Source: Candidatus Nealsonbacteria bacterium
GTDB lineage: Bacteria; Patescibacteriota; Minisyncoccia; Minisyncoccales; RBG-13-42-11
Direction of reading: 5' to 3'
Assembly (NCBI GenBank): GCA_019923655.1
Contig: JAHXGL010000001.1
Location: 3,653-67,652 of the forward strand
Length of the DNA stretch: 64,000 bases
Positions within the stretch are counted from its first letter, which is position 1. The number at the start of each line of letters is the position of its first letter. This document shows, piece after piece, positions 3,766-51,210 of this stretch. The translations under genes were made by a program, and so were the position numbers. Below the pieces are notes generated by a model. That model ran no database searches. It was not told the DNA's origin and saw only the letters and a program-made list of their open reading frames with translations.

Positions 3766-3792
3766 GATTGACAAGGTTTTTGTAAATGATAA

Positions 3793-3827
3793 GGTAGAAG
3801 GTAGAAGGTAGAAGGTAGAAGGTAGAG
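3793..3827. repeat. Heptamer microsatellite (GGTAGAA)x4 plus GGTAGAG
   Basis: Five exact-period 7-nt units read directly, 29 nt upstream of the GH130 gene ATG. Confidence 0.9.
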
Positions 3828-17478: not shown

Positions 17479-20400
17479 TTAGGAGTTAAGCGGGGTAAAG
17501 CCGGTCCCTGCGGGAATAAGCTTTCCAATAATCACATTTTCTTTAAGCCCGTGGAGTTTATCTTCTTTTCCTCTCAATGAAGCGTTGATTAAAACCCGAG
17601 AAGTTTCCTGAAAAGAAGCAGCGGAAAGAAAGCTCTCAGTGGTTAAAGCGACCTTAGAGACGCCAAGCAAAAGAACAATACCCTTGGCTGGCTTTTTTTT
17701 CTCTTTTTTGAGCTGAATGTTCTCTCTTAAAAATTCCGCTTTTTCTACAATTTCCCCAAGTTTAAAAATAGAATCTTCGGAAACAACAATCTTTAAACGA
17801 GAGAACATTTGGCGGCAGATTGTTTCTATGTGTTTGTCATGAAGTGAAACCCCTTGGGAAACATAAATTTTTTGGACTTCTTTGACAATATATTTTTGAG
17901 TTTGTTCAAGCCCAACCAACTTAAATAATTCTTTTAAGTCTAAATTACCCTCGCAGAGTTGCTGGCCTATTTCTATTTCTTGGTTAGGTTCTACTAAAAT
18001 TGCTATATTTTCCGGAATTTTATATTCTAAGATTGAAGACAAACTTTTAGTAGTCCTCCAATTCTTTTTTGTTTCTGACAGCAATTTTTTGCGTTTTTGT
18101 TTTATCTTTATTACCCTTTCAGGAGTTATTTCTATTATTTTTCCTCGGACTTGGGAAATCTTAGCTTTTCCTTTCGGTATTCTAGCTTCAAAAATCTCTT
18201 GAACTCGAGGCAGGCCAAGGGTAATATCACTTTCTCCGGCAACGCCCCCGGAATGGAAAGTTCTCATTGTTAGTTGGGTTCCTGGTTCGCCAATTGACTG
18301 AGCAGCCACAATTCCGGCTGCCTGTCCTATTTCTATTATTTTGTTTTTTCCCATATCCCAACCATAACATTTTTGACAAAGGCCTTTTACTACTTCACAA
18401 GTAAGCGGACTGGCGATTTTTATCTCTTTGATATTAAGACTGACTATTTTATCAGCTTTTTCCCAATCAATAATTTCTCCTTTTTTGCAAACCCCTTTTA
18501 TGTTTTCAAGGCTTATTCTTCCTGAAATTTTATGAATAAAATTCTGGCCAATTTCATCGGCATCTTTTCTTTGGACGATAATTCCTTGTTTGTTTCCGCA
18601 ATCTTTGGTAGTAATGATTATTTCATGGGCAACATCTATCAGTCTTCGGGTGAGATATCCAGCCGCTGCAGTTCGAAGCGCCGTGTCAGCCAGTCCTTTT
18701 CTTGTTCCATGAGTGGAAATAAAATATTCTAAAACATCAAAACCCTGCTTAAAAGAGTTTTTTATGGGCATTTCAATGATTTGACCGGTCGGATTAATAA
18801 CCAAACCTTTCATACCTGCCATTTGAACCGACGGACCCCAGGATCCTTTTGCTCCTGATTCAATGATTTGATAAATTGGCCCATTTTTTGGCAAGGTTTT
18901 CGGGATCAATTCTTCAATTTTGGACTTTGCTTTATTCCAAATTTTAATTACTTTAATAGTTTTTTCTTCTCTTGAGAGAAATCCTTTTTTTAAGTGTCCT
19001 TCAATTTCTTCTACTTCCTTTTCTGCTTCTTTTATAATTTTGGTTTTTTCTAAGGGAATAATTAAATCATCCATTCCCCAGGATATTCCGGACAGGCTGG
19101 CGTATTCAAATCCTAATAGTTTTATTTTATTTAAGAGATCTTGCGTTTTTTCTAAAGGGTATTTTTCAATAGTTTCCCTGCTTATTCTTTCTAAGTCTTT
19201 TATTTTTATTTCTGAATTCTGGAATGGGTAGTTTGAAGGCAGGGCTTGGTTGAAAATAATCCGACCAACCGAAGTTTCAATTAAATCCGTGCGTTTTAGC
19301 GGTTTAACATTTTGTCGGGACAGCCGCGTTTTAATTTTGGTTTTTAAGTCAATTTCGCCAAACTCATAAGCTAACATCGCTTCTTCGGGACTGGTAAAAA
19401 ATTTCTCTGGTTTTAGTGCTTCATCTTCAATTTTAGTTAAATAATAACAACCAAGAGCAATGTCTTGATGGAAAGTAATAACCGGAATACCTGTTGCCGG
19501 TTTTAGAAAATTAGCCGTGGAAAGCATAATTTCTCTAGCTTCTTTTTGGGCAATGGTTGAAAGGGGCAGGTGAACCGCCATTTGATCTCCGTCAAAATCA
19601 GCATTAAAAGCCTTACAGACCATGGGATGAATTTTAATGGCTTCTCCTTCAATTAAAACCGGATAGAAAGCTTGAATACCCAGCCGATGGAGGGTTGGCG
19701 CCCGATTTAATAAAACAACTTTATCTTTTGTTATTTCTTCTAAAATTGCCCAGACCTCATCTATGCCTTCTTCAATTAATTTTGAGGCGCTTCGAACATT
19801 ATAAGCTAGTTCTTTTTCCAAAATCTTTTTAATTATAAATGGCTTAAAAAGTTCCAGAGCCATTTTTTTAGGGAGACCGACTTGGTTAAGTTTTAATTCC
19901 GGACCAACGACAATTACCGACCGACCGGAATAATCAACTCGTTTGCCTAAAAGGTTCTGCCTGAATCGCCCCTGTTTCCCTTTAAGGATGTCAGCTAAAG
20001 ATTTTAGCATTCGCTTTCCGCCGGTCGTGGCAGTGGTCATTGTTCCTTTTCGGGCTTCGTTGTCAATGAGAGCGTCTACTGCTTCCTGGAGCATTCTTTT
20101 TTCATTCCTTAGAATAACTTCAGGCGCTTCTATTTCTAAAAGATATTTTAATCGATTGTTTCGATTAATTACTCGGCGATAAAGGTCGTTTAAATCCGAA
20201 GAAGCATACCGGCCGCCGTCCAGTTGCACCATTGGTCTTAAATCCGGAGGCGATACTGGTAAAAGTGTTAAAAATACCCATTCTGGTCTAATCTCAGCTT
20301 TTAACATTCCCTGGAAAAGTTTTATCCTTTCTAATATTTTTCTTTTAGCCAGGACTTGCCCCGTTAGATAATTTTTATCTAACGGGGCTTGCTCTGTTAG

Positions 20401-21228
20401 ATAATTTTTATCTAACAGGGATTGCCCCGTATAATCTTCGCGGGAGCTACGCGGGGATTGGGTTTTTTCTTTGTCATTTTTTAGTTTAGCTATTTCTTTT
20501 TCCAGGTCAATTTTGGTGCAAAGTTTTCTTAATGTTTCAGCTCCGGTTCCCACTTCAAAAACAGCCCCGTATTTCAGGGAAAGATCATGATATTCATTTT
20601 CAGAAAGAATTTTTAAAGGTTTTAGACTTAAAACTTCTTCTCGGGCTCTATTTTTAGCCTTTTTTAGCTTCTCTGACTCGGTTTTTGCTTTTGCTTTTTT
20701 ATTTTTGAGATTCTTTTGTTTTGACTCGTCTTGGTCTAAGGAACGCAGCGCCTTGTTTTTTCTTTTGTATTCTTTTTCAATCTCTTCCAGGATTTTTTTC
20801 TTAATGTCTAAGTTGACATCAGTAATAACATAGGCGGAGAAATAAATTATTTTTTCAAGCTGAGACACAGGAATATCCAGGATTGCGCCTATTGTTGAGG
20901 GAACGCCTCTTAAAAACCAAATATGGGAGCAGGCCATAGCTAGTTTAATGTGGCCCATTCTTTCGCGCCGCGAAAGAGCTTTTGTTACTTCTACGCCGCA
21001 CCGGTCACAAATTACTCCTTTGTAACGAATTCTTTTATATTTGCCGCAGTAGCACTCGTAATCTTTTGTTGGTCCGAAAATTTTCTCGCAAAACAGCCCA
21101 TCTTTTTCCGGCCTTTGTGTTCTATAATTAATAGTTTCAGGTTTTAAGACCTCTCCGTGAGACCATCTTGATATATCTTCCGGCGAAGCCAGTTTTATTC
21201 TTATTGATTTAATATCAGCAACTCGCAT
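17479..21228 (-). CDS. rpoC: DNA-directed RNA polymerase subunit beta-prime, with a K/E-rich lineage-specific insertion
   Basis: CxCGKY...CDRCGVEV zinc motif, NADFDGDQM catalytic loop, 1249 aa. Confidence 0.98.
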   Translation of the reverse strand: MRVADIKSIRIKLASPEDISRWSHGEVLKPETINYRTQRPEKDGLFCEKIFGPTKDYECYCGKYKRIRYKGVICDRCGVEVTKALSRRERMGHIKLAMACSHIWFLRGVPSTIGAILDIPVSQLEKIIYFSAYVITDVNLDIKKKILEEIEKEYKRKNKALRSLDQDESKQKNLKNKKAKAKTESEKLKKAKNRAREEVLSLKPLKILSENEYHDLSLKYGAVFEVGTGAETLRKLCTKIDLEKEIAKLKNDKEKTQSPRSSREDYTGQSLLDKNYLTEQAPLDKNYLTGQVLAKRKILERIKLFQGMLKAEIRPEWVFLTLLPVSPPDLRPMVQLDGGRYASSDLNDLYRRVINRNNRLKYLLEIEAPEVILRNEKRMLQEAVDALIDNEARKGTMTTATTGGKRMLKSLADILKGKQGRFRQNLLGKRVDYSGRSVIVVGPELKLNQVGLPKKMALELFKPFIIKKILEKELAYNVRSASKLIEEGIDEVWAILEEITKDKVVLLNRAPTLHRLGIQAFYPVLIEGEAIKIHPMVCKAFNADFDGDQMAVHLPLSTIAQKEAREIMLSTANFLKPATGIPVITFHQDIALGCYYLTKIEDEALKPEKFFTSPEEAMLAYEFGEIDLKTKIKTRLSRQNVKPLKRTDLIETSVGRIIFNQALPSNYPFQNSEIKIKDLERISRETIEKYPLEKTQDLLNKIKLLGFEYASLSGISWGMDDLIIPLEKTKIIKEAEKEVEEIEGHLKKGFLSREEKTIKVIKIWNKAKSKIEELIPKTLPKNGPIYQIIESGAKGSWGPSVQMAGMKGLVINPTGQIIEMPIKNSFKQGFDVLEYFISTHGTRKGLADTALRTAAAGYLTRRLIDVAHEIIITTKDCGNKQGIIVQRKDADEIGQNFIHKISGRISLENIKGVCKKGEIIDWEKADKIVSLNIKEIKIASPLTCEVVKGLCQKCYGWDMGKNKIIEIGQAAGIVAAQSIGEPGTQLTMRTFHSGGVAGESDITLGLPRVQEIFEARIPKGKAKISQVRGKIIEITPERVIKIKQKRKKLLSETKKNWRTTKSLSSILEYKIPENIAILVEPNQEIEIGQQLCEGNLDLKELFKLVGLEQTQKYIVKEVQKIYVSQGVSLHDKHIETICRQMFSRLKIVVSEDSIFKLGEIVEKAEFLRENIQLKKEKKKPAKGIVLLLGVSKVALTTESFLSAASFQETSRVLINASLRGKEDKLHGLKENVIIGKLIPAGTGFTPLNS
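20355..20420. repeat. Two tandem 33-nt palindromic units inside rpoC (stem CCCCGTTAGATAA/TTATCTAACGGGG)
   Basis: Read directly; translated in frame as LDKNYLTEQAP/LDKNYLTGQVL. Confidence 0.9.
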
Positions 21229-21249
21229 AATTGTAGGATGTAAAATAAT

Positions 21250-21335
21250 ATAGAAAGTAGAGGGTAGAAAGTAGAAGGTAGAGGGTAAAAAACTTTTATC
21301 TACATTCTACATTCTACATTCTACATTCTATATTC
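21250..21335. repeat. Inverted heptamer arrays: (GTAGARR)x5, an A-rich spacer, then (CTACATT)x4. The core at 21275-21330 is 54/56 identical to 50949-51004.
   Basis: Read directly in the rpoB-rpoC intergenic region. Confidence 0.9.
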
Positions 21336-21340
21336 CATAT

Positions 21341-24300
21341 TTAAGATTTCTGTTGTTTTGGTTTTTCCTTCACTTCTACGCTTAATCCAAGCGATTTCAA
21401 TTCTGCTACCAATAAGTTAAAGGAAGCAGGCAGGTTCGGACTTTTAATCTCTTCTCCTTTTAATATTGATTCATAAGTTGTTACTCTTCCAGAGATATCA
21501 TCTGATTTTATGGTTAACATCTCCTGAAGAATGTGAGCGGCTCCATACCCTTCTAGCGCCCAAACCTCCATTTCTCCAAATCTTTGCCCCCCAAGTTGCG
21601 ATTTTCCTCTTAATGGCTGTTGGGTGATTAAGGAGTAGGGGCCGATTGAGCGCATATGAATTTTATCTTCAACCATATGAGCTAATTTCATCATATAGAT
21701 ATAGCCAACCGTGATTTTTTTCTGAAAAGCTAATCCGGTTTGGCCGTCATATAAAGTAATTTTTCCATCTTCCGGGAGCCCGGCCTCTTTTAGTTCTTTT
21801 TTAATATCTTGTTCGGTTGCTCCGGATAAAGACGGAGTTATTGCCTGATACTTTAATTTTTTTGCGGCCCAGCCCAGGTGAGCTTCTAAAATTTGACCAA
21901 GGTTCATTCTGGAGACTACGCTTATCGGGTTTAAAATTATATCAACTGCCGTACCATCTTTCATAAATGGCATTTCTTCAACAGGCAAAATCTTTGAAAT
22001 TACCCCTTTGTTTCCGTAGCGGCCGGCTAACTTATCTCCAACCATAATTTTTCTGGCTTGAGCCACCTCAACTTCGATTCTTTTTATTATGCCCGGTTCT
22101 AATTTATGTCCCAATTCCCGGGAAAAAATTTTCACACCAACTACTCTTCCTCTTTTTCCGTGTTCCATAACAAGCGAGGTATCTTTAATTTCGCGGGCTT
22201 TTTCTCCAAAAATCGCTTTTAACAGCCTTTCTTCAGCTGTTAAATCCTGTTCTCCTTTTGGTGAAATTTTACCAACTAAAATATCGTTTTGTTCAACTTC
22301 AGCTCCTACCCTGATAATTCCTTCTCCGTCCAGATCTTTTAGTTTTTCTTCTGAAACATTGGGAATATCGCAAGTGGTAAGCTCCGGTCCTAATTTTGTT
22401 TCTCGGACATCGCATTCAAACTTTTCAATATAAATTGAAGTATAGGATTCATCTTTAACCAATCTTTCTGAAATAATAATCGCGTCTTCAAAGTTCCCTC
22501 CTCGCCAAGGCATGAAAGCGACTAAAATATTTTGGCCCAAAGCAAGACTTTTTTGAGAAATTGCTCCCCCGTCTGTTAAAACATCGCCTTTTTTAATTCT
22601 TTGACCTTTTTTTACAATTGGAATCTGGTGGAGACAGGTGCATTGATTGGTGCGGATAAAAGTTTTCAAATTATAAATCATTGATTCCGTTGGAAACGAA
22701 GCCTTCCAAGGGTTAATAATAATATGTTCTGCGTCAACTTTAATAACATAGCCGTCAATATCCGAGATAATTTCTTGGCCTGAATCTCTGGCTACTTTTT
22801 CCTCTGTTCCAGTAGAAACAATTGGGGGTTCAGGCCTTATTAAAGGAACTGCCTGACGCTGCATATTTGAGGCCATTAAAGTTCGAGCAGAATCATTATG
22901 CTGCAAAAAAGGAATACAAGAAGTCGCAACGGAAATAAATTGTTGGGGAGAAACATCAATAAAATCAATTTTATCTTTTTCAATGAATCCTGGCTCGCCC
23001 TTTATTCTGGCCTCAACTTTAGTGGGAATAATCTTGCCTTTTTTATTAAGAGGAATAGCCCCGGAGGCAATATTGAATTGTTCTTCCTGATAAGCGTTAA
23101 GGTATTGGACATCAGCCAACACTTTTCCGTTTTTAACTTTAAAATAAGGAGTTTCCAGAAAACCGAAATCATTAATTTTGGCGAATAAAGCCAGATGGCT
23201 GACCAGTCCGACATTAGGTCCTTCCGGGGTCTGAATCGGGCAAATTTTGCCGTAATAAGAAGGTTGGACATCTCTTACTTCAAATCCAGCTCTGTCTCTG
23301 TTTAGCCCTCCCGGACCAGTAACCGACAATCTTCTTTTATGTTCAAGTTCAGCCAATGGATTTTCATTGTCCATAAATTGGGATATTTGAGAAGAGGTAA
23401 AGAATTCTTTAACCACGGATATAAAGGGTCCGGGATTAATTAATTGTCCCGGAGCTAAATCCTCAATAGGTAAAACCGACATCCGGTCTCTAATGATTCT
23501 GCTCATTCTTACAAGTCCAATTTTTAATCTATTTTGCAATAATTCATTTAAAGTTCTGACTCTTCGGTTTCCCAGATGGTCAATTTTATCAGGCTTGGCG
23601 CCCGGCGTATTATTAAGCCGGATAATTTCTTTTATTACCGCTATTACATCTTCTAATTTCAATACTCTGTCTTCTGTTGTAATTTCTGTTTCATTGTTGT
23701 TTGCTGACAATGTCGTGAAACGTTGTTGCATCCTCCACCTTCCTACTTTAGATAAATCATATCGTTCAAAGTTAAAAAACATATTATTAATCAGTTCTTT
23801 GGCAGTGTCTGGGCTTACCAAGTCTCCAGGCCTTAATCTTTGATAGATTTCTACCAAAGCTTGGTCCTGGTTGTTGGTTAAATCTTTCTTTAGGGTTTCT
23901 TCAATATATTTAATTTCACCCAAATCAACATCTTTAAATAATTCTTTTATTGCTTTATTTTCAGAAGCGCCAAAAGCCCTTAACAGGGTAGTCGCCATTA
24001 TTTTTCTTTTCCGGTCAATTTTTACCCCAATTATGCCCGAGGAATCTGTTTCAATCTCAAGCCATGCTCCCCAGTTGGGAATAATTTTTGCCCCAAAATA
24101 ATTTTTATTGCCAAATCTTTGGGCGGTAAAAAAAACTCCCGGTGAACGGATTAATTGAGAAATAGCGACTCTTTCCACTCCGTTAATAATAAAAGTTCCC
24201 CTTTCAGTCATCAAGGGGAAATCAGTTAAAAAAATCTCTTGCTCTTTGGTTTTTTTAGTTTTTAGATTATTCAACCTTACTCTTGCTCTTAAAGTTGCTT

Positions 24301-24547
24301 CATAGGAATCGTTGTTTATCCGCGCTTCCATATCGTTTTTATATCTTGGTTTTTCAAGCCTATAATCTAAAAACCAAAGCTCCATTTCTTTGTTTGTATA
24401 ATCGCGAATAGGAGAAATTTCTTGGAAAAGATTTTTTAGATCTTTTTTCCAAAAGATTTCCCATCTTTCTTTTTGAGAAGCCAACAAATAAGGCAAGGAA
24501 AGAGAAACGCTCTCCCTGGCAAAAAGCTTTGTTTTTGTTGTGTTCAT
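21341..24547 (-). CDS. rpoB: DNA-directed RNA polymerase subunit beta
   Basis: 1068-1072 aa with conserved blocks (GPGGL.RDRAGFEVRDV, NMQRQAVPL, RFGEMEVWALE). The ATG at 24547 is preferred over the GTG at 24559. Confidence 0.98.
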   Translation of the reverse strand: MNTTKTKLFARESVSLSLPYLLASQKERWEIFWKKDLKNLFQEISPIRDYTNKEMELWFLDYRLEKPRYKNDMEARINNDSYEATLRARVRLNNLKTKKTKEQEIFLTDFPLMTERGTFIINGVERVAISQLIRSPGVFFTAQRFGNKNYFGAKIIPNWGAWLEIETDSSGIIGVKIDRKRKIMATTLLRAFGASENKAIKELFKDVDLGEIKYIEETLKKDLTNNQDQALVEIYQRLRPGDLVSPDTAKELINNMFFNFERYDLSKVGRWRMQQRFTTLSANNNETEITTEDRVLKLEDVIAVIKEIIRLNNTPGAKPDKIDHLGNRRVRTLNELLQNRLKIGLVRMSRIIRDRMSVLPIEDLAPGQLINPGPFISVVKEFFTSSQISQFMDNENPLAELEHKRRLSVTGPGGLNRDRAGFEVRDVQPSYYGKICPIQTPEGPNVGLVSHLALFAKINDFGFLETPYFKVKNGKVLADVQYLNAYQEEQFNIASGAIPLNKKGKIIPTKVEARIKGEPGFIEKDKIDFIDVSPQQFISVATSCIPFLQHNDSARTLMASNMQRQAVPLIRPEPPIVSTGTEEKVARDSGQEIISDIDGYVIKVDAEHIIINPWKASFPTESMIYNLKTFIRTNQCTCLHQIPIVKKGQRIKKGDVLTDGGAISQKSLALGQNILVAFMPWRGGNFEDAIIISERLVKDESYTSIYIEKFECDVRETKLGPELTTCDIPNVSEEKLKDLDGEGIIRVGAEVEQNDILVGKISPKGEQDLTAEERLLKAIFGEKAREIKDTSLVMEHGKRGRVVGVKIFSRELGHKLEPGIIKRIEVEVAQARKIMVGDKLAGRYGNKGVISKILPVEEMPFMKDGTAVDIILNPISVVSRMNLGQILEAHLGWAAKKLKYQAITPSLSGATEQDIKKELKEAGLPEDGKITLYDGQTGLAFQKKITVGYIYMMKLAHMVEDKIHMRSIGPYSLITQQPLRGKSQLGGQRFGEMEVWALEGYGAAHILQEMLTIKSDDISGRVTTYESILKGEEIKSPNLPASFNLLVAELKSLGLSVEVKEKPKQQKS

Positions 24548-24931
24548 ACGCGTGACCACTTCTAAAACTCGGGGCGCAAAGAATAATGCCCTGTCTTTAT
24601 AAATAAGACATAAAAAGCCTTTAAGTAAAAAGACTTTTAGGATTTATCTTTGGTAGTTAACTACTCTATTCATAAGGAATAAAGATTTTTGGTTTTATGA
24701 TGACCTGCGGCATCTCCTCGTAGCAAGAATTCGGATAGTTCCTGTCCCAATGAGTCTTATTTTAATATCTTATTGGCTTTGCGTCAGATACAAGGCTAAC
24801 TAAGTTAATTGCTTCTCTTTGTCTGCCCGGAAAGACACAATATACGATAACATATTTAGACAGAAAAGCAAAGTCGCAGAATTTTATCCACACCTCTAAA
24901 AGGGAATGAGTTTTCTCGTCTGCTTTCTATA

Positions 24932-24960
24932 ATTATAACTCTTATCTAAAACTTTGTCAA
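24932..24960 (-). promoter_or_regulatory. Consensus sigma70-type promoter (TTGACA, 17 nt, TATAAT) reading toward rpoB
   Basis: Minus strand reads ttgacaaagttttagataagagttataat; -35 at 24955-24960, -10 at 24932-24937. Confidence 0.65.
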
Positions 24961-24971
24961 ATTTTTTACGC

Positions 24972-25637
24972 TTAATCCTTCTTCTTTTCCCAGAATTTTC
25001 TAATTTTCTTAAAGTGATCAATTCGTTCTGTAATTTTGCCAATCTCTTTTGGGTAAAATTCCAAAAGCGTATCGCACAAGTCCAACATCCACTTTTTACG
25101 ACTATTTTTAGGGACCAGATTTACTACATTTGCGTTGGCAATTTGAATTTGTCCCCAACCGAGCGCGCCTATTGTTAAACAATTCCAGTTAAAAAATTCT
25201 ATAGGTGCAAAAACAATATGTTTAATAACGACTTTTGTGCCTTCAATTTGATAATCAATTTTCAAAAGTGAAAAATAATTTACATCTTCCTCATAGAACC
25301 TTGATAGTCGCTCAACGGAAGTCAAATTTGGCATGTTAAACTTCGTATCTAATCTATGTGTTTTTACATCAACAACATAGTAAAAGCCGTCTTTGTCAGT
25401 AAAGGCGAGGTCGGCCATTGCGCGACGCGCAAATGACGATGAATACTCGCTTACTAAATCGCCAAGTATTTCCTTAAAGTTTTCTACGATAATATTTTCA
25501 ATAGCGTCGCCAACCGCGCGAGGACTATTTTGTGTTCTCGCGGAAAGAAAATCTTTTTGGTTATTCAAAAAAGTTTTAATTTTTTCTGCGATTTCTTTAT
25601 ATTTGTTTGTATAAAAAATTAAACTTTTCTTTTTCAT
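24972..25637 (-). CDS. Putative type II restriction endonuclease (R1)
   Basis: 221 aa; overlaps the upstream methyltransferase gene by 4 nt; PD-(D/E)XK-like ADLAF...YYVVDVKTH. No family recognised. Confidence 0.6.
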   Translation of the reverse strand: MKKKSLIFYTNKYKEIAEKIKTFLNNQKDFLSARTQNSPRAVGDAIENIIVENFKEILGDLVSEYSSSFARRAMADLAFTDKDGFYYVVDVKTHRLDTKFNMPNLTSVERLSRFYEEDVNYFSLLKIDYQIEGTKVVIKHIVFAPIEFFNWNCLTIGALGWGQIQIANANVVNLVPKNSRKKWMLDLCDTLLEFYPKEIGKITERIDHFKKIRKFWEKKKD

Positions 25638-26647
25638 AATAGTTTATTATTAAATAAATCTGCTGTTGGCTCGACTTTATTTTTCTTTCCGTTTCCGTTC
25701 ATTTGCTCGTTAAGTGTATTGCGTTCCCAAAATATACCGTCCGAGTATCCTTGTATGTTTTTTTCTTTTTCTGTTATATCTAATCGCTTTTCAGCAAAAC
25801 AACAATAATACTCATCAACTTCTATGCCAACATACCGACGACCAAGTTTTTTTGCGACAACCGAAGTCGTGCCCGAACCAAGAAACGGGTCAAAAACAAT
25901 ATCATTTGGTTTTGAACTGGCCAAAATAACTTTAGCAACCAATTTTTCTGGTTTTTGTGTTGGGTGGTCAGTATTTTCCGGCATTGACCAAAACGGAATT
26001 GTAATATCTGTCCAAACATTTGATGGGTGAGTAATTCTATATTTCCCAGCGTCGCTATCTTCCCAATCTTTCGGCTTTCCGTTTTCGTCTTTGTATGGCG
26101 CTATAACTTTACGCTTCATTTTTACAGCGTCAACATTGAAATGATATTTATCGGAAAGTGTGCAAAACCAAATATCCTCGGAGCAATTTTTCCAATTACT
26201 TTTTGCGCCGCGTCCTTTTTCTCGTTCAAAGGTTATGCGATTTTGTATCTTAAAGTATTTTTTCGCTACATTAAAAATTGCCCCTGATGATTTCCAATCA
26301 CCACAAATATAAACAGAGGCGTGCGGTTTCAGTATCCGAATAAGTTTAGCAACCCAAGAATCAAGCCATTGCTCATATTTTTCTGACTCCATTTCTTTAA
26401 ACGAGGTAAGGTTGAAAGTTTTATTAAGGTTATAGGGTGGGTCAACAAAAACTAAATCAACAAAACTATCCGGTAAATAATTTAATGCCTCAAAAATATC
26501 CTGATGTATAGTTTTATTTTCGACTTCTTCAAGAGAAATAGGTTTATTTATTTTTATCAGCCGTTTTTTAAAATTGGAAATATCACTATCGCTCAATGTG
26601 ATAGTTCTATTTCTTGGTGCTCGTTGTTTTAGTGTTTTATCTTTCAT
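25634..26647 (-). CDS. Beta-class N6-adenine/N4-cytosine DNA methyltransferase (M1)
   Basis: DPPYN (motif IV) precedes FDPFLGSGTT (motif I). The ATG at 26647 lies 4 nt after the HTH gene stop; the track start at 26671 is a TTG. Confidence 0.88.
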   Translation of the reverse strand: MKDKTLKQRAPRNRTITLSDSDISNFKKRLIKINKPISLEEVENKTIHQDIFEALNYLPDSFVDLVFVDPPYNLNKTFNLTSFKEMESEKYEQWLDSWVAKLIRILKPHASVYICGDWKSSGAIFNVAKKYFKIQNRITFEREKGRGAKSNWKNCSEDIWFCTLSDKYHFNVDAVKMKRKVIAPYKDENGKPKDWEDSDAGKYRITHPSNVWTDITIPFWSMPENTDHPTQKPEKLVAKVILASSKPNDIVFDPFLGSGTTSVVAKKLGRRYVGIEVDEYYCCFAEKRLDITEKEKNIQGYSDGIFWERNTLNEQMNGNGKKNKVEPTADLFNNKLL

Positions 26648-26651
26648 TGGT

Positions 26652-26786
26652 TTATTTGATTGAATCTTCAATTGGAATATTTAACGCTTTCGCAATTTTT
26701 TTCAGCGTTTCTACCGTCGGATTTTGTTGTTTGCCCGCTTCTATGTTGATTATCGTATTATTGGACACATCGGCAAGCCGAGCCAG
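26652..26786 (-). CDS. XRE/C-protein-like HTH remnant (HTH-1) with no canonical start; its 5' end lies in the 49-bp repeat core
   Basis: Manual minus-strand translation gives LARLADVSNNTIINIEAGKQQNPTVETLKKIAKALNIPIEDSIK*. No in-frame ATG/GTG/TTG between that point and the upstream stop. Confidence 0.45.
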   Translation of the reverse strand: MARLADVSNNTIINIEAGKQQNPTVETLKKIAKALNIPIEDSIK

Positions 26787-26862
26787 TTTTCCCGTACAAA
26801 GCGGCGCGAAGCGCCGCCGAAACGCTGGACAAAAAAGAGGAAAGTTTGATACTGGAGCGGGT
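26775..26862. repeat. Direct repeat copy 1 (88 bp): a 49-bp core identical to 29909-29957, a 29-nt diverged spacer, and a 10-nt tRNA-Gly 3'-end fragment (TGGAGCGGGT)
   Basis: Aligned by eye with 29909-29996. The core contains the hairpin GCGGCGC-GAA-GCGCCGC. Confidence 0.9.
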
Positions 26863-26993
26863 TATTGGAAAAAGTTAGAACTTTTTACCAGCAAAATCCG
26901 GACGCGGAAATTTGATTTGATTTGCCCTCGCTCTTGCCCCGTAGTGAACGCGAAGCGTTCTACTACTGGGGTTTCCGCCGCCGCAATTTTTCA

Positions 26994-27010
26994 TGCCAGC
27001 GAAGCTGGCA
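26994..27010 (-). terminator. Hairpin TGCCAGC-GAA-GCTGGCA just downstream of the 172-aa ORF; on the minus strand it is followed by UGAAAAAUU
   Basis: 7-bp GC-rich stem read directly; a second, imperfect hairpin lies at 26937-26971. Confidence 0.5.
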
Positions 27011-27026
27011 CACTGCCTAAAAATTT

Positions 27027-27545
27027 TTATTCATTTTCTAATGGAAATATTTTACAATTTTTATCCGGACACACTAAAATAATTTTTTCGAAAAAATATT
27101 GTTTTAACTCTGCTCCCAAAATAAAATTTCTAAATTCATCTTTAAAATATTCCTCGCCGATAAACGATGGACTAGGGACACAAAACAACAAACAAATTAT
27201 TCCTTTCGCCGCTTTACCGAAGTTGTGATTTTCCAATGGTTCTTTAATTATGGATGTCCAGTATTCTTCGGTATTTCTCCAAAACTTTTTTTTACCATTT
27301 TCTCTTCTCCCCAAACAAACAAGCTCAAAAACACCACCTCTTTTATCAATAGTTCTACGCGGACCTTCTAATTTTCCATCAGCAAAAGCCACTTGAAATT
27401 TTTTATCTTTCCAAAAAACATCGCTGGGGTCATTTTCAACCGGATTCGGTTCAATGTCCTGCTCTTTGAAATCTAAACCTTCATTTTGTAAATATCTTTT
27501 TACAACATTTATTTCTTCTGTTTGTTTTTGTGAAAAAGAGTTCAT
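27027..27545 (-). CDS. Hypothetical protein (172 aa) in the R-M island
   Basis: Uninterrupted ORF, co-oriented with and 59 nt downstream of M2. No motif recognised. Confidence 0.55.
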   Translation of the reverse strand: MNSFSQKQTEEINVVKRYLQNEGLDFKEQDIEPNPVENDPSDVFWKDKKFQVAFADGKLEGPRRTIDKRGGVFELVCLGRRENGKKKFWRNTEEYWTSIIKEPLENHNFGKAAKGIICLLFCVPSPSFIGEEYFKDEFRNFILGAELKQYFFEKIILVCPDKNCKIFPLENE

Positions 27546-27604
27546 TTTATTTCTTCTTTTGGATTTAATTTTTTATTATCTTGTTTCATATTACTTAGTA
27601 ATAA

Positions 27605-28786
27605 TTAAAAAGCTAACTTTTGTTGATTTGCTGGTGCTAAATTACGAATATCAATTTTTTCAAATTTAATTTCAGACATAGATTCAGATTTTCCATTTTT
27701 GTCTATTAAAAATAAGTATTCCTTATTTTTTCCGTTAGTATTGTTAATCCATTCGTTGGTTGTCCGAGTTATTGTCGCCATTACATTTTTTCTGTAATCC
27801 ATTTCAAAAATAGAGATTTTTTTCTTCAAATTTTTTAGTATGTCTTTTATTGCTTGAAAGGTAGCCCTGCCATTATTGTTATAAGATAAAACCACATATT
27901 TTGCCGGAGTATTCTTTATCAATTTTTCTATCGCTTCAATAACAATATATTGTCCCTCATCATTTTTTCTAAACTCCTCAAAAATAGAACCGGAAATTGT
28001 ATCGCCAACATCCTCTCGCCTATTCGCTACGCCAACTAATTTTGGTTTATCGTTCAAGCAAATAGTTTTCCAAATATGATAATAAGAGGCGTATCTCACG
28101 CGAGAGGGCGGCATTAACTCATTTGAAGAACCATAAGGAGGGTCGTAATACGCTAAATCCACTTCAATATCATTTACTAAATCAAAAATATCTTTTTGAT
28201 AAACTTGATGTTGTTTGTCATCAATAATTAAACGAGGCACTTCCATTTTCATCGTGTTGTAGGCGCGGGGAGCCCATTTTTTCAAATACGAAACTTGATG
28301 ACCAACAGAACTATCGACCTTATCCATTGCTATAATTAAACTGGTAAGTAAGACCGACTTTTCAATTTTATCTTTTGTGATTTTATCAATCTCTTCTCTT
28401 ATTGCGTCCAGTTTTTTGGTATTATGTAATTGCCAAATCCTTTTTCTGCCGTCTTTTTGAATGGCAGAGCCGCCGTTCGGTTCGCCGCCGTAATTTTCCG
28501 AGAACCAGCCATATTTTCCGGGTAAATTATTTAGGTGATTTATAAGTGGTAAATAATAACTCGCGGATCTTTTATTCAATAAATAACACTCTCCAAATAT
28601 TTTTGACCAATCAGAAATATCATTAGCGTAGACGGCATAGCCAGCTTGTTTTAATGCTTGAGAAACCCTTGTCGTGCCAGAAAAACCATCTAAAACCGTT
28701 TTTATATTTAACGGCTTTATCAACTCCAACAAAACAGGGAGTATTTCTCTTTTAGAACCAGTATATTTTATGCCCTGTGTTTCCAT
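27605..28786 (-). CDS. Alpha-class (D12/Dam-like) N6-adenine DNA methyltransferase (M2) with a C-terminal extension
   Basis: KYTGSK, DGFSGTT (motif I), then YYDPPYGSS (motif IV). Confidence 0.88.
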   Translation of the reverse strand: METQGIKYTGSKREILPVLLELIKPLNIKTVLDGFSGTTRVSQALKQAGYAVYANDISDWSKIFGECYLLNKRSASYYLPLINHLNNLPGKYGWFSENYGGEPNGGSAIQKDGRKRIWQLHNTKKLDAIREEIDKITKDKIEKSVLLTSLIIAMDKVDSSVGHQVSYLKKWAPRAYNTMKMEVPRLIIDDKQHQVYQKDIFDLVNDIEVDLAYYDPPYGSSNELMPPSRVRYASYYHIWKTICLNDKPKLVGVANRREDVGDTISGSIFEEFRKNDEGQYIVIEAIEKLIKNTPAKYVVLSYNNNGRATFQAIKDILKNLKKKISIFEMDYRKNVMATITRTTNEWINNTNGKNKEYLFLIDKNGKSESMSEIKFEKIDIRNLAPANQQKLAF

Positions 28787-28858
28787 AAGCTAAAATTAAT
28801 AGATTATTCTCTAATATCATTTTAGCATTTTTTATTGTTTTGGTCTATTTAACGAGGG

Positions 28859-29665: not shown

Positions 29666-29754
29666 AATTAAAAATCGCTAAAAAATCAGGCAATTTTAAA
29701 TTAAGCGCTTTTGCCACTTTTTCTATATTTTCTAAAGTTATATTTTTTTCTGCT

Positions 29755-29967: not shown

Positions 29968-29996
29968 AAATCCGAAAGTCAAATCTTGGAGCGGGT
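29909..29996. repeat. Direct repeat copy 2 (88 bp), including the genuine 3' end of tRNA-Gly
   Basis: See copy 1. The core is at 29909-29957, with the hairpin at 29935-29951. Confidence 0.9.
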
Positions 29997-30061
29997 GAGC
30001 GGAGTCGAACCGCCTTCTCAATCTTGGCAAGATTGCATAATAACCGTTATACTACACCCGC
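29987..30061 (-). tRNA. tRNA-Gly(GCC), CCA encoded
   Basis: GCGGGTG acceptor, anticodon loop TTGCCAA, T-loop TTCGACT, ...CACCCGCTCCA. Confidence 0.85.
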
Positions 30062-46863: not shown

Positions 46864-48966
46864 ATGGTTTTCTCCTACGGTTGGCTTCAATCTTTTTTTC
46901 AAAAAAAACTACCCAAACCAGAAAAACTGGCAGAAGTTTTGACGATGAGTTTTGCCGAAATAGAAAAGGTAAAAAAAGAAAGAGAAGATTTTGTTTTGGA
47001 TATAGATGTCAAACCCAGCCGGGCGTCGGATTGTCTTTCCCACCTGGGCATTGTTCGCGAAATCGCTGCTATTACAAAATTACAATACAAAGAGCCTCTT
47101 TCTAAATTTAAGGCAGTTAAAGAGCTGAAATCAAAAAATTTTGTGTCTGTTGACATCCGATGTCAACAAGCTTGTCCAAGATATACAATTAAAATAATTG
47201 TTGATGTAAAAGTTTGCCCATCTCCAAAATGGCTGAAACACAGATTAAAGGTTTGCGGATTAAAACCGATAAATAACATTGTTGATATCGCAAACTATGC
47301 CATGCTTGAAACAGGTCAACCGCTTCACGCTTTTGATTTTGACAAAATTAAAGGTAGAAAAATAATTGTTAGAAAAGCGAAAAAAGGAGAAGAAATTACT
47401 ACTTTTGATGAAAAGAGTTATTGCTTGGACCAAGATATTTTAATAATTGCCGATGCCAAAAAACCAATAGCTATTGCCGGAATAAAAGGAGGGAAAGAAA
47501 CAGGCATTGATAAAAATACAAAGACCGTTGTTTTGGAGTCAGCCAATTTTAATCAAGGGATTATTCGAAAAGGTTCCAGAAAATTAAACTTAAAAACCGA
47601 TGCTGCGACAAGATTTGAACAGGGAATTGACCCTAATTTAACGGAATTTGCAATCAATAGAGCTTGCTATTTAATCCAGAAAATTTCCAAAGGCAAAATA
47701 GCTCATGGATTGGCAGATATTTATCCCAAAAAAGCCCTGCCAAAAAGAATTAGATTGGACTTGGATTATGTTGAAAGATTATTAGGAATAAAAATACCTG
47801 AAAGAGAAATCAAAAGTATTTTAGAAAAACTAAGATTCAAGCTTAAAACTCAAAACTTAAAACTATTAGATGTAGAGATTCCTACGTTCAGATTAGATAT
47901 TTCTTTACAGGAAGATTTGATTGAAGAGATCGCCAGAATATATGGTTATGAGAAAATTAAGCCGGTTTTCCCGATAGTTTCGCTTATCCCGTTCAAAAGG
48001 AATCTGGAAATTTTTTGGGAAGGCAGGGCAAAAGATATTTTAGAACAAGCAAGATTTTCTGAAGTTTATAATTATTCTTTCATTAGTAAAGGGGATGCCA
48101 AAAATTTTGGCGGTAAGATAAATAAATTAATTGAAATAGAAAATCCATCAAGCATTGAACATAGATATTTGAGACCGAGCTTAATTCCGAATTTGTTAAA
48201 AAATATTCAAAAAAATCAGAAACTCTATTTTGAAACTTTCAAAACTCATAGAGTTTTGAAGAGTGAAACTTTCAAAACTCTACGAATTTTGAAGAGTAAA
48301 GAAATTAAAATTTTTGAATTAGGAAAAATTTTTCAAGCGCCTAAATTAGAAAAAAGAACTCTTTCGGGGGTAATGACAGGAGATGCGTTTTATCAAGTAA
48401 AGGGAGTAATAGATTTGCTTTTAAGTAAATTAGGCATTAGTAATATTCAGTATTGCGAGCATAGAACCGTAGAAAGGGGGTTAAAAAGCTGTTGGTGGCA
48501 GCCACCAAAATGCGCGGAGATTAAAATTAATGGAGAGCAAATAGGGTTTTTGGGCGAGGTTTCTTTCCGAGTTTTAAGCGACCTGAAAATAGAGCTGAAA
48601 ACAATAGTTTTTGATATTGATTTTGAAAAATTAGTTAGGTTTTGCTCTGAAGAAAAGACCTATCAGCCAATTTCTCGTTATCCGTCAGCAATAAGGGACA
48701 TAGCGGTTTTGGTTCCTAAAAGAATTAAAGTGAATGAGGTTTTGAATAAGATTAATGCGGTCAAAGGACAGAGAGGCCTGATTAAGGATGTGGATTTGTT
48801 TGATGTTTATGAAGGCAGGAACATTCCCAATAACAAGAAAAATTTTGCTTTCCATATTATTTATCAAGCGGAAAATAAAACTTTATCATCAAAAGAAATA
48901 GACGACGCACATCAAAAAATTGTTAAAGCATTGGAGGAACGCAAGGGATGGGAAGTCCGAAAGTAA
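46864..48966 (+). CDS. pheT: Phenylalanine--tRNA ligase beta subunit
   Basis: 700 aa with B3/4, B5 and anticodon-binding-like regions; follows pheS. Confidence 0.92.
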   Translation: MVFSYGWLQSFFQKKLPKPEKLAEVLTMSFAEIEKVKKEREDFVLDIDVKPSRASDCLSHLGIVREIAAITKLQYKEPLSKFKAVKELKSKNFVSVDIRCQQACPRYTIKIIVDVKVCPSPKWLKHRLKVCGLKPINNIVDIANYAMLETGQPLHAFDFDKIKGRKIIVRKAKKGEEITTFDEKSYCLDQDILIIADAKKPIAIAGIKGGKETGIDKNTKTVVLESANFNQGIIRKGSRKLNLKTDAATRFEQGIDPNLTEFAINRACYLIQKISKGKIAHGLADIYPKKALPKRIRLDLDYVERLLGIKIPEREIKSILEKLRFKLKTQNLKLLDVEIPTFRLDISLQEDLIEEIARIYGYEKIKPVFPIVSLIPFKRNLEIFWEGRAKDILEQARFSEVYNYSFISKGDAKNFGGKINKLIEIENPSSIEHRYLRPSLIPNLLKNIQKNQKLYFETFKTHRVLKSETFKTLRILKSKEIKIFELGKIFQAPKLEKRTLSGVMTGDAFYQVKGVIDLLLSKLGISNIQYCEHRTVERGLKSCWWQPPKCAEIKINGEQIGFLGEVSFRVLSDLKIELKTIVFDIDFEKLVRFCSEEKTYQPISRYPSAIRDIAVLVPKRIKVNEVLNKINAVKGQRGLIKDVDLFDVYEGRNIPNNKKNFAFHIIYQAENKTLSSKEIDDAHQKIVKALEERKGWEVRK
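48232..48297. repeat. Two tandem 33-nt palindromic units inside pheT (GAAACTTTCAAAACTC-N3-GAGTTTTGAAGAGT)
   Basis: Units at 48232-48264 and 48265-48297, read directly; translated as ETFKTHRVLKS/ETFKTLRILKS. Confidence 0.9.
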
Positions 48967-48968
48967 AA

Positions 48969-50909
48969 ATGAAAAAACAAACTAAAAATAAAAAAGAGGC
49001 AACCTATACAGCAAAAGATATTTATGTCTTGGAGGGCTTGGACCCGGTCAGAAAGAGGCCGGGAATGTATATTGGGACAACCGGGACCGACGGTCTGCAT
49101 CATTTAATTTATGAAACAACTGATAATGCGTTGGATGAATTTATGATGGGATATGGAGACCAGATGGAAATTACGCTTTTGCCAAATGGCCGGGTGAAAG
49201 TGACTGATAATGGCAGAGGCATTCCGGTTGATAGGCACGCCCAAACCAAGAAATCAGCTTTAGAAACAGTGATGACTACTTTGCATGCCGGGGCAAAATT
49301 CGGCGGCAAATCTTATCAGATTTCCGGCGGGCTGCACGGGGTAGGGGTTTCAGTAGTTTGCGCTTTGTCGCGCTGGATGAGGGTTGAAGTTTGCCGACAG
49401 GGCATAAAATACGCCCAGGAGTATGCTAAGGGCAAAGCAAAAACAAAAGTTAAAAAAATTGACGTTTGCAAACAATCAGGAACCACTGTTATTTTTGAAC
49501 CAGATCCGGAAATCTTTAAGGGGTTTGGGGAATCGCTTAAATTTGATTTCAGAAAGATCTTAAACCATCTTCGTCAGCAGTCCTATCTGATAAAAGGAAT
49601 AAAAACAATAATTAGAGACGAGCGGCTTAGGGAAAAGAAAAGCTATAGTTTTTATTTTAGCGGCGGACTGGCTTCTTACATAAAATATTTAACGCGTGGA
49701 GCTGTTTCTAGACAGAGAAATATTTTTTACGGCCAAGGCGAGAAGAATGGAATTTTAGTTGAAGCGGTTTTTCAGTACACTCAGGAATACGAGTGTTACG
49801 AAGAGAGTTTCGCCAATAATATTAATACCGGAGAAGGCGGTACTCACTTAACAGGATTCAGAACCGCCCTGACAAGAACATTCAATGATTACGCGAGAAA
49901 GAATGGTTTTCTTAAAGAGAACGGAGAGAATTTAACAGGTGAAGACATAAGAGAAGGTTTAACCAGCGTAGTTTCGGTTAAAATAAAAGAGCCCCAATTT
50001 GAAGGACAGACAAAAGCGAAATTAGGAAATCCTGAAGCAAGGCCGGCGGTAGAGCAGGTAGTGGCAGAAACTTTAATTGATTGGCTTGAAAGAAATCCCC
50101 AGGATGCCAGGGCAATTATTGAAAATTGCTTAATAGTGGCTAAAGCAAGAAAGGCGGCTAAAGCGGCAAAAGAAATTGTGCTAAGAAAAGGGGCGTTAGA
50201 TGGATTGGCTCTGCCTGGAAAATTAGCTGATTGCGCCTCAAAAAAGCCAGAGGAATCAGAACTTTATATTGTTGAAGGCGCCAGCGCCAGCGGCAGTTGT
50301 AAAATGGGAAGAGATCGGAGATTTCAAGCCATACTGCCTTTGCGGGGAAAAATTTTAAATGTTGAGAGGGCTCGTTTAGATAAAATTCTTAGTTCAAAAG
50401 AGATTAAGTCGCTGATTATTGCTCTCGGCACTGCTATTGCTGAAGATTTTAACATAAACAACGCAAGATATCACAGAATTATTTTAACCTTGGACGCAGA
50501 TATTGACGGCTCTCACATTAGAACCCTGCTGCTTACATTTTTTTACCGGTATTTTAAGCCGTTGATTGAAAAAGGCTATCTCTACATTGCCCAGCCGCCG
50601 CTTTATAAAATACAAGTTGGGAAACAAAGAGAATATGTCTATACCGAAGAACAAAAAATTAAACTTTTGAAAGGAATAAAAAAAGAAAAAGGAATTACTA
50701 TTCAAAGATATAAAGGTTTAGGAGAAATGAATCCGGAAGAATTATGGTCAACGACAATGAATCCGAAAAACAGGACTTTACTTCAGGTAACCATTGAAAA
50801 CGTTAAAGAGGCTGACCGAATTTTTGATATTTTAATGGGCGAAGAAGTTTTACCAAGGAAAAAATTTATTCAAACACACGCTAAACAGGTCAAAAATCTT
50901 GATATTTGA
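48969..50909 (+). CDS. gyrB: DNA gyrase subunit B
   Basis: LEGLDPVRKRPGMYIG, GGLHGVG, the EGASA(S)GS Toprim region, PLRGKILNVE. Confidence 0.96.
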   Translation: MKKQTKNKKEATYTAKDIYVLEGLDPVRKRPGMYIGTTGTDGLHHLIYETTDNALDEFMMGYGDQMEITLLPNGRVKVTDNGRGIPVDRHAQTKKSALETVMTTLHAGAKFGGKSYQISGGLHGVGVSVVCALSRWMRVEVCRQGIKYAQEYAKGKAKTKVKKIDVCKQSGTTVIFEPDPEIFKGFGESLKFDFRKILNHLRQQSYLIKGIKTIIRDERLREKKSYSFYFSGGLASYIKYLTRGAVSRQRNIFYGQGEKNGILVEAVFQYTQEYECYEESFANNINTGEGGTHLTGFRTALTRTFNDYARKNGFLKENGENLTGEDIREGLTSVVSVKIKEPQFEGQTKAKLGNPEARPAVEQVVAETLIDWLERNPQDARAIIENCLIVAKARKAAKAAKEIVLRKGALDGLALPGKLADCASKKPEESELYIVEGASASGSCKMGRDRRFQAILPLRGKILNVERARLDKILSSKEIKSLIIALGTAIAEDFNINNARYHRIILTLDADIDGSHIRTLLLTFFYRYFKPLIEKGYLYIAQPPLYKIQVGKQREYVYTEEQKIKLLKGIKKEKGITIQRYKGLGEMNPEELWSTTMNPKNRTLLQVTIENVKEADRIFDILMGEEVLPRKKFIQTHAKQVKNLDI

Positions 50910-50920
50910 TTATTAATGAT

Positions 50921-51005
50921 ATAGAGTGTAGAATAATATAGAAAAAGGAAGGTAGAGGGCAAAAAACTTTTAACTACATTCTACATTCTACATTCTACAT
51001 TCTAA
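50921..51005. repeat. Second copy of the inverted heptamer-array element (core at 50949-51004)
   Basis: aaggtagagggcaaaaaacttttaactacattctacattctacattctacattcta read directly; ends 5 nt before the secE ATG. Confidence 0.9.
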
Positions 51006-51009: not shown

Positions 51010-51210
51010 ATGAACTTAACAAACATTCCAAATAAAGCCATTACTTTCTTAAAAGAAGTTCGTTTGGAGATGAGAAAATCTAACTGGCCGACCAGAGAAG
51101 AAACCATTAAATATACTTTGATTGTAATTGGGGCTTCAATAGTGGTAGCTATTTATTTAGGCGGACTTGATGTTTTGTTTACTTTCTTAATTGGGGAGTT
51201 TATACTATAA
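51010..51210 (+). CDS. secE: Preprotein translocase subunit SecE
   Basis: 66 aa, FLKEVRLEMRKSNWPTREE plus a single TM helix; precedes nusG. Confidence 0.88.
   Translation: MNLTNIPNKAITFLKEVRLEMRKSNWPTREETIKYTLIVIGASIVVAIYLGGLDVLFTFLIGEFIL

Follow-up and report, generated by a model that had tools for sequence, protein, structure and literature searches.

What is a palindrome made of 7-nt repeats doing between rpoB and rpoC, two genes of an essential operon, and why does a near-identical copy of it stand directly upstream of secE? These questions are raised by a 64,000-nt stretch of contig JAHXGL010000001.1 from a Candidatus Nealsonbacteria bacterium (hereafter the window, that is, the whole stretch of DNA that was analyzed). 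The source genome is AT-rich and compact, and the RpoC and NusG proteins encoded in the window are nearest to those of Parcubacteria (Nealsonbacteria/Pacebacteria-like). An earlier reading of the letters (hereafter the original prediction) had pointed out two inverted heptamer arrays in the rpoB–rpoC spacer and a related sequence some 30 kb away. Here, we show that the two loci are copies of one element, and we consider it on balance probable that this element is a lineage-specific palindrome, built by slippage of heptamers and copied once, which is transcribed but dispensable, and whose effects, if any, are generic and exerted at the level of RNA.

Two copies of one heptamer palindrome

Copy 1 of the element takes up the whole 112-nt rpoB–rpoC spacer, from the rpoB stop side to the rpoC start codon, and consists of a purine-rich arm, a loop centre, and a G-less arm (Table 1). 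The original prediction described the first arm as five GTAGARR units; the array is real but, when parsed from position 21250, it has four exact GTAGARR units and two degenerate ones. The four CTACATT units described for the opposite arm are present in the sequence, and two variant units follow them. Between the arms, the loop with its flanking A run (AAAAAACTTTTAT) is an A-run followed by a T-run, and can pair with itself. Read on the mRNA (minus strand), the G-less arm becomes a 5′ arm, (GAATGTA)n, which starts next to the rpoB stop codon, while the purine-rich arm becomes a G-less 3′ arm (CUACYYU). The end of the stem lies 18 nt from the rpoC ATG.

Copy 2 lies ~30 kb away in the 100-nt gyrB–secE spacer. 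Its left arm is decayed and two heptamers shorter than that of copy 1, its loop and its four CTACATT units are as in copy 1, and it ends 5 nt before the secE ATG. Alignment bore out the previously noted match of 54 out of 56 nt in a core (21275-21330 vs 50949-51004), and extended the homology to 21228-21330 vs 50914-51004 (103 vs 91 nt) with a single 14-nt (two-heptamer) indel. Because the non-repeat loop and the left flank are also shared, the two loci are copies of one ~100 bp element, related by descent. They have the same orientation on the plus strand and their genes lie on opposite strands, hence the copies are inverted relative to transcription.

The heptamer family is over-represented in the window. 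Tandem Repeats Finder reported a period of 7 at 3791-3826, 21251-21287, 21299-21335, and 50974-51004; in all, six period-7 arrays were found in the window, and none with a period of 4, 5, 8, or 10. GTAGARRGTAGARR (up to one mismatch) matched 9 times vs 0.13 expected, with 0 out of 100 shuffles as high, and CTACATTCTACATT (up to two mismatches) matched 14 times vs 0.37 expected, again with no shuffle as high. One array is an orphan of the same family that lacks an inverted arm. Its neighbors are an SBP_bac_5 gene and a GH130 gene, the ATG of the latter being 29 nt downstream of the array, and no hairpin was predicted there (z +0.9). Heptamer arrays are therefore found in three spacers of the window, that is, they are intergenic at several loci. 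A sensitive BLAST search of the 64 kb revealed no copies beyond the two full ones and this half-array, and exact-protein look-ups with GH130 and SBP, made for a strain comparison of the orphan array, returned no records. We rejected an assembly artefact, given that identical sequences occur in independent assemblies.

Table 1. Coordinates of the heptamer element, its parts and its neighbors in the window.
Feature	Position	Strand	Basis and remarks
Copy 1, palindromic heptamer element	21228..21340		Sequence and alignment to copy 2
Purine-rich arm, copy 1	21250..21291	+	ATAGAAA GTAGAGG GTAGAAA GTAGAAG GTAGAGG GTAAAAA
Loop centre, copy 1	21292..21299		Sequence, RNA and DNA folds
G-less arm, copy 1	21300..21341	+	CTACATT x4, then CTATATT, CCATATT
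rpoB, upstream gene of copy 1	24559..21341	-	Pfam
rpoC, downstream gene of copy 1	21228..17479	-	Pfam
Copy 2 of the element	50914..51004		gyrB–secE spacer; alignment to copy 1, fold
G-less arm, copy 2	50974..51004	+	CTACATT x4 plus CTA; sense orientation in the secE 5′ leader
gyrB, upstream gene of copy 2	48948..50909	+	Pfam
secE, downstream gene of copy 2	51010..51210	+	Pfam; then nusG, rplK
Orphan array (GGTAGAA)x5	3791..3826	+	Same heptamer family, without inverted arm
Candidate secE–nusG promoter TTGATT-17-TAGAAT	50906..50934	+	Consensus match only; -10 box in the outer left heptamers of copy 2

Both transcripts are predicted to carry a long AU-rich hairpin

The predicted RNA stem of copy 1 is ~40 bp long, AU-rich, and interrupted by periodic mismatches of 1–2 nt. 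Its folding energy is –35.9 kcal/mol on the mRNA (minus) strand (z –8.3), –36.8 kcal/mol on the plus strand, and –22 to –23 kcal/mol as DNA. The original estimate of a ~35-bp stem with a periodic mismatch agrees well with the folds, which give ~35–40 bp. The RNA fold of copy 2 is weaker (–23.7 kcal/mol, z –3.5 to –4.3). In either mRNA, the 5′ arm is purine-rich and contains G, the centre is an A-run/U-run, and the 3′ arm is U-rich and G-less; because the element is a palindrome, both mRNAs receive the same layout of arms despite the inversion.

The hairpin does not look like a canonical terminator. An intrinsic terminator has a short GC-rich stem, whereas that of copy 1 is ~40 bp, AU-rich, and periodically mismatched, and a consensus scan called no terminator at either copy. 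To this extent the original prediction, that neither copy resembles a typical terminator, was correct; its statement that a U-tract is missing is only partly true. At locus 1, the stem is followed in the rpoB-to-rpoC direction by AUUUUAC (AUUUUACAU, a U4), while at locus 2 it is followed by AACUUAUG, which lacks a U-tract. No match to Rfam 15 was found at either locus at the gathering score or with an E value up to 0.5. The predicted stem of copy 1 does, in silico, reach the length expected of an RNase III substrate (at least 20 bp of double-stranded RNA).

Co-transcription of rpoB and rpoC is implied, since the order rpoB-rpoC-ftsK-recA is kept in relatives with spacers of 5–24 nt. We also considered whether the arms supply a Shine-Dalgarno (SD) sequence, or whether the hairpin brings one near the start codon. 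This was rejected: the genome is mostly devoid of SD sequences, and the SD-like purines are inside the stem. The lack of an SD sequence before rpoC and secE is normal here, SD usage being low genome-wide.

Hairpins come and go at the same spacers in relatives

A 99%-identical strain (L127) has the same rpoB–rpoC spacer letter for letter, and one public assembly (L002) has an identical secE spacer. Out of four public assemblies, three are interrupted by N-gaps at precisely the secE copy, and a Logan contig terminates inside its heptamers; assemblers therefore fail there. A change of length in 7-nt steps was seen only between the paralogous copies (the 14-nt indel), as allelic copies were either identical or in N-gaps.

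The sister species (RpoC 85–86% identical) lacks the element at both sites. Its rpoB–rpoC spacer is only 24 nt (TAACTTAAGCGCTTAGTCAACTTAAATATG) and unstructured (–0.2 kcal/mol), and no GTAG-type heptamer array was found in ~17 kb of its syntenic DNA. Its secE leader has a different, 33-nt tandem hairpin repeat (GTGATGAAAACTTCGTTTTCATCGACTAC; L133:60-150, L134:1-60, L135:1-20), and three independent assemblies of the sister species stop at this repeat before secE. The secE leader thus has a different repeat in each lineage. In another relative (L136), secE is preceded by a canonical TTGACA-17-TAATAT promoter and then a GC hairpin. The original prediction had implied a special element tied to genes of the transcription machinery and to gene starts, and perhaps bound by a protein. 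This significance does not hold: the element is missing from both sister-species sites, the rpoB–rpoC spacer varies in length among relatives, and the two copies face opposite ways with respect to transcription.

With the window included, the rpoB–rpoC spacer ranges from 5 to 112 nt (5–96 nt in relatives). More distant relatives keep the order rpoB-rpoC-ftsK-recA and have spacers of 43, 61, and 62 nt. The 43-nt spacer (L177) has a small AU-rich hairpin followed by U5 (AUAUUUUUC). The 62-nt spacer of a Nealsonbacteria-like relative (L178:8314-8381, L179:4430-4497) has a small hairpin, (GAATTAA)(GAATAAA)(GAATAGA) - loop - AATTCATTATTCTTC, with the heptamer style and polarity of the window element. 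We noted that an alternative pairing, ATTGCGA/TCGCAAT, is possible in the latter spacer, and that its two structures could be mutually exclusive. The most telling pair is L180 and L181, which encode an identical RpoC protein with a spacer of 96 nt (L180:3902-4003) and 5 nt (L181:2173-2183), respectively. The L180 spacer is occupied by an unrelated AU-rich hairpin of ~40 bp (91 nt) with 7-nt periodic arms, which ends CUUUUCACUUUU-AUG. Collectively, the rpoB–rpoC spacer in these bacteria repeatedly gains and loses AU-rich palindromes, none of which is required.

The same comparisons bear on whether the element is a selected attenuator or processing site that would set the rpoB:rpoC ratio and the level of secE–nusG, whether as a leaky terminator, as an RNase III site, or by occluding the secE start. 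Several features would suit such a role: the very stable predicted hairpin of copy 1, the AUUUUAC that follows it, the secE stem that stops 5 nt before the AUG, and an arm polarity (purine 5′ arm, U-rich G-less 3′ arm) that is that of bidirectional terminators. Relatives also have AU-rich hairpins followed by U-runs in the rpoB–rpoC spacer (L177, AUAUUUUUC; L180, CUUUUCACUUUU directly before the AUG), and in L136 a promoter and then a hairpin precede secE. Nevertheless, a hairpin is not required, as judged by the unstructured 24-nt spacer of the sister species and the 5-nt spacer of L181; hairpin sequences are unrelated between lineages; and the consensus scan was negative for both copies. We therefore regard selection for attenuation or processing as possible, though rather unlikely.

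Another explanation is that the element is mobile, namely a non-autonomous unit akin to miniature inverted-repeat transposable elements (MITEs) or repetitive extragenic palindromic (REP) sequences, whose heptamer arms would be terminal inverted repeats moved by a transposase encoded elsewhere, with the two copies as independent insertions. Two copies that are 92–96% identical, non-repeat loop included, at a distance of 30 kb are what this explanation predicts, and so are the absence from homologous sites in the sister species, the breaking of assemblies there as at dispersed repeats, and the presence or absence of an unrelated hairpin at the same spacer in another lineage (L180/L181). By contrast, although the arms can serve as inverted repeats, inspection of the borders of either copy found no target-site duplication, the 64 kb hold only two copies and one half-array, and a loop-plus-arm pattern matched a single contig in a metagenome collection. 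Furthermore, slippage is suggested both by the 14-nt indel and by the orphan array, and none of the 51 window open reading frames (ORFs) scanned against Pfam encodes a transposase, a REP-associated tyrosine transposase (RAYT), or a HutP/TRAP-like protein. Mobility of this kind is, in our view, unlikely.

CTACATT arrays across phyla are intergenic but not biased to gene starts

We scanned one genome per species for (CTACATT)x3 and obtained at least 120 stretches; the source genome was not among the matches listed, to which the following counts apply. The matches came from Cyanobacteria (many from Moorena and Symploca), Bacteroidota, several Patescibacteria groups, Elusimicrobia, Chloroflexi, Verrucomicrobia, Clostridia, and one DPANN archaeon, and many other heptamer units formed neighboring arrays. 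By crude ORF calls, ~87–89% of the (CTACATT)n arrays in the at least 120 stretches are intergenic. The downstream neighbor of an array was a gene start in 42 cases vs a gene stop in 64, and arrays before starts were in sense or antisense orientation equally often (42 vs 45). Arrays were enriched between convergent genes (29% vs 16% background, p 0.006) and depleted between divergent ones (12%). The arrays showed a weak, non-significant association with canonical terminators upstream of them (7 vs 3-4).

Two candidates were rejected on these grounds. A translation element of the 5′-UTR (untranslated region) that is oriented to starts, like TAACTGA arrays, is at odds with the equal numbers of sense and antisense arrays and with stops being commoner than starts. 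Nor is CTACATT a specially conserved motif, because two permuted heptamers of matched composition are found as arrays equally often; in viral contigs, CTTACAT formed 23 arrays and CACTTAT 7, vs 10 for CTACATT.

The original prediction had named the outcome that would speak against it: a core that is a common dispersed repeat, placed at random and without bias toward gene starts. The bias toward starts is indeed absent across the at least 120 stretches, and an enrichment between convergent genes is seen instead, which is near to the outcome named. The exact 56-nt core, however, is not common; in the metagenome scan, the pattern of loop plus right arm matched one contig only, which is the secE copy of the same organism.

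Heptamer hairpins share one arm polarity

Among the 116 matches listed with sufficient flank, 21 arrays had an inverted partner within 150 nt. All 21 were arranged as 5′-(AATGTAG-like)n ... (CTACATT)n-3′, and none in the opposite order. In viral contigs, three out of ten arrays had an inverted partner, with the same polarity. Pooled over the loci seeded on CTACATTx3 (genomes, L006-L125; viral contigs, L137-L146), the polarity is 24 to 0 (p about 1e-7) across at least 15 genera and at least 9 phyla, and both window copies (21228-21340 and 50914-51004) follow the same purine-5′ order. Folds of –17 to –77 kcal/mol support the hairpins in this set, and the other heptamer units that form hairpins at these loci mostly have a C-less 5′ arm and a G-less 3′ arm. 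None of 30 permuted-unit arrays had an inverted partner, and a gapped-pattern search for polarity in viral contigs gave 0 matches for both arrangements. Hairpin-type arrays were again enriched between convergent genes (9 out of the 21 listed, p 0.005).

The stability of the free hairpin cannot account for the polarity, since the duplex is the same in both arrangements. A pyrimidine-rich RNA forms the weakest kind of RNA:DNA hybrid, and the observed order would place that hybrid under the polymerase as the stem closes. So strict a polarity points to a function linked to transcription or to a specific mechanism of origin. In the broadest reading, heptamer hairpins would make up a class of polar palindromes that is widespread and has not been described before, which may have the form 5′-(C-less purine-rich units)n - loop - (G-less U-rich units)n-3′ on both strands in at least 9 phyla, and which would either act as U-tract-independent bidirectional terminators or insulators, or be made by end-addition or fold-back. 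As terminators, they would combine the closing of a long stem with the weak hybrid formed by their pyrimidine-rich 3′ arm. In a Parcubacteria-like host with few canonical terminators, the copies at rpoB–rpoC and secE would then count as leaky examples through which read-through is adjusted. We find this reading doubtful. The element is a modest finding when taken alone; its wider value lies in the strict polarity and in the polymorphic rpoB–rpoC spacer.

The regular spacing of the units might also suggest an array of binding sites for a DNA- or RNA-binding protein that reads the 7-nt period. In each of the two transcripts, UAG (TAG) triplets follow one another at 7-nt intervals along the 5′ arm. 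Arrays of the HutP/TRAP type combine regularly spaced UAG/GAG triplets with a cognate protein, and the UAG spacing of the element looks similar to the UAG-N4-UAG of HutP antiterminator sites. No HutP/TRAP-like gene was found among the scanned window ORFs, the UAGs are locked in the predicted stem, and heptamer hairpins of the same architecture elsewhere lack UAG (AATGAAG, AATGTTG, GAATTAA, ATTTTGG). The sister species, moreover, lacks the element. A binding array appears highly improbable.

A further proposal is that the purine arm carries promoters, with TAGAAT/TAGAGT every 7 nt serving as putative -10 boxes for secE–nusG and for the GH130 gene. TTGATT-17-TAGAAT (Table 1) and TTGATA-17-TAGAGT overlap the left end of copy 2, and L136 has its canonical promoter at the equivalent position before secE. 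By eye, a TTGACA-16-TGaTAAGGT (extended -10) at ~3769-3796 runs directly into the orphan array, which would then begin the GH130 transcript. On the other hand, these are matches to only 9 out of 12 consensus positions in an AT-rich spacer, copy 1 has no promoter-like site on the rpoC-sense strand, and across phyla the arrays are depleted in divergent, promoter-rich spacers. We consider a promoter role distinctly unlikely. The readings weighed here partly overlap and are not mutually exclusive.

A probable route of origin and possible effects on RNA

Returning to the slippage-built palindrome, we infer both its slippage-and-copy origin and any effect at the RNA level. Replication slippage would have extended a (GTAGAAN)n/(CTACATT)n array until two inverted arms flanked an A-run/T-run centre. 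Recombination or transposition would next have placed a single copy of the entire ~100 bp unit in another spacer, at a distance of 30 kb, and the copies would later have diverged through a slippage indel of two heptamers. Once transcribed, as part of the rpoB–rpoC message and of the secE leader, the element would form a long AU-rich hairpin in either orientation. Any effect might be that of a leaky terminator or pause site and/or of a barrier to exonucleases that protects flanking mRNA; RNase J and S1 are both encoded in the window (Pfam). On this account, the element is not a gene-specific regulatory site, and it is dispensable and probably close to neutral.

Several points weigh against this account. 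Termination in the rpoB–rpoC spacer could only be weak, since an efficient signal at that place would do harm. At secE, the end of the stem 5 nt before the AUG would occlude the landing zone of the ribosome and could amount to translational control instead of neutrality. Hairpins recur at the rpoB–rpoC spacer in most lineages examined, which could reflect selection. Only two full copies are visible in the 64-kb window, and variation in heptamer number among strains, which the original prediction had proposed as a check, was not seen in the few assemblies at hand, which are identical or N-gapped. Lastly, the cross-phylum gene-orientation statistics were obtained with simple, crude ORF calls.

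Other features of the window

At least four other families of short hairpin repeats lie in spacers and at gene ends of the window, most of them without a U-tract: CTGTCGGGGTTTGACCCCGACAG (2005-2052, 7763-7785); GTCTTCCAAAC..GTTTGGAAAC, in 32-33-nt tandem copies (5806-5845, 35278-35378, 39777-39850); TGACATRTTAGACACCGAGTGTCTAACAT (55720-55763, 56566-56609); and AGGAGTGTG..CACACTCCT (3739-3766, 40508-40540). They may be the terminators of this organism. Because hairpins that lack a U-tract and genes that lack an SD sequence are common at other spacers, neither feature is special to rpoC or secE. Within the 5′ part of the rpoC coding sequence (20350-20430) there is also a 33-nt tandem repeat (2.5 copies, 83% matches).

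Upstream of rpoB, the segment 24972-30003 between the L19/tRNA cluster and rpoB encodes a HincII-like endonuclease, an N6_N4 methylase, a D12 methylase, and unknown ORFs. The L19–rpoB distance in the sister species is only ~715 nt, and 95-nt direct repeats that are 81% identical (26775-26869, 29909-30003) flank the D12 methylase segment, which makes 24972-30003 look like an inserted restriction-modification island. Two long spacers without an Rfam match, one of 282 nt that is highly structured (11887-12168, –86.8 kcal/mol) and one of 412 nt upstream of rpoB (24560-24971, –86.6 kcal/mol), may be unannotated RNAs or leaders. GyrA (35773-39678) has an intein bearing a LAGLIDADG domain. ThyX (53483-55093) has 536 aa vs 219 aa in the sister species and SHMT (57243-59228) has 661 aa vs 420 aa; the extra length of both suggests further insertions or inteins.

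Comparison with known systems

The element shares with bidirectional intrinsic terminators (A-tract, hairpin, U-tract) a palindrome that is purine/A-rich at the 5′ side and U-rich at the 3′ side on both strands. Such terminators are favored between convergent genes, and heptamer hairpins have the same arm order in 24 out of 24 inverted pairs and are likewise enriched between convergent genes. It differs from them in its ~40-bp AU-rich and mismatched stem, in having only a weak U-tract at locus 1 and none at locus 2, and in its location between co-directional genes, one pair of which is the rpoBC operon.

REP sequences and the bacterial interspersed mosaic elements (BIMEs) made of them, as well as MITEs such as Correia elements, are also imperfect palindromes of spacers, located within operons or between convergent genes, and the hairpins that they form in mRNA can stabilize upstream mRNA or carry promoter-like boxes. 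The window element resembles these as an imperfect palindrome in a spacer and within an operon. REP elements are 35–40 bp, GC-rich, present in hundreds of copies, and accompanied by a RAYT partner, while MITEs are flanked by target-site duplications. In the 64 kb, none of these traits was seen for the window element.

Heptamers are the commonest class of long simple sequence repeats in prokaryotes (PMC4679880). One of them, TAACTGA, forms arrays in spacers of Beggiatoaceae, Cyanobacteria, and Bacteroidetes; indels occur in 7-nt steps, contigs break in the arrays, and the phyletic spread is patchy. In these genomes, which make little use of SD sequences, the arrays often stand just a few nt upstream of a start codon (PMC4679880). 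The CTACATT x4 array that ends 5 nt before the secE ATG is reminiscent of this placement. TAACTGA sets, however, are almost exclusively direct (169 direct, 1 indirect) and are oriented to starts in the BOGUAY genome (PMC4679880), whereas the window element is an inverted pair and the (CTACATT)n arrays listed across phyla show no start bias.

The closest counterpart is the hairpin of short tandemly repeated repetitive (STRR) sequences in filamentous cyanobacteria. Their 7-bp repeats can fold between the co-transcribed genes hupS and hupL, where they have been proposed to affect transcript stability, translational coupling, pausing, or termination (PMC2670836; further examples of heptamer arrays are given in PMC2408588). 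The window matches the published description of STRR sequences in having 7-bp tandem units in spacers, inverted arrays that make a hairpin between co-transcribed genes (predicted –35.9 and –23.7 kcal/mol), and several loci per genome. It differs in its host (Patescibacteria/Parcubacteria), in its unit (GTAGAAN/CTACATT), in its tally of two hairpins and one array in 64 kb, and in that its hairpins are copies of one another, loop included. By its defining features, the window element is an STRR-like heptamer hairpin, and it is distinct from canonical terminators, MITEs, and Rfam families. This finding has a practical side, as short-read assemblies break at these elements, and it marks the rpoB–rpoC spacer as a recurrent and polymorphic site where dispensable AU-rich palindromes land or expand. 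It extends STRR-like heptamer hairpins from cyanobacteria to a genome of the Patescibacteria (candidate phyla radiation), which tolerates one such hairpin within the essential rpoBC operon and another immediately upstream of secE.

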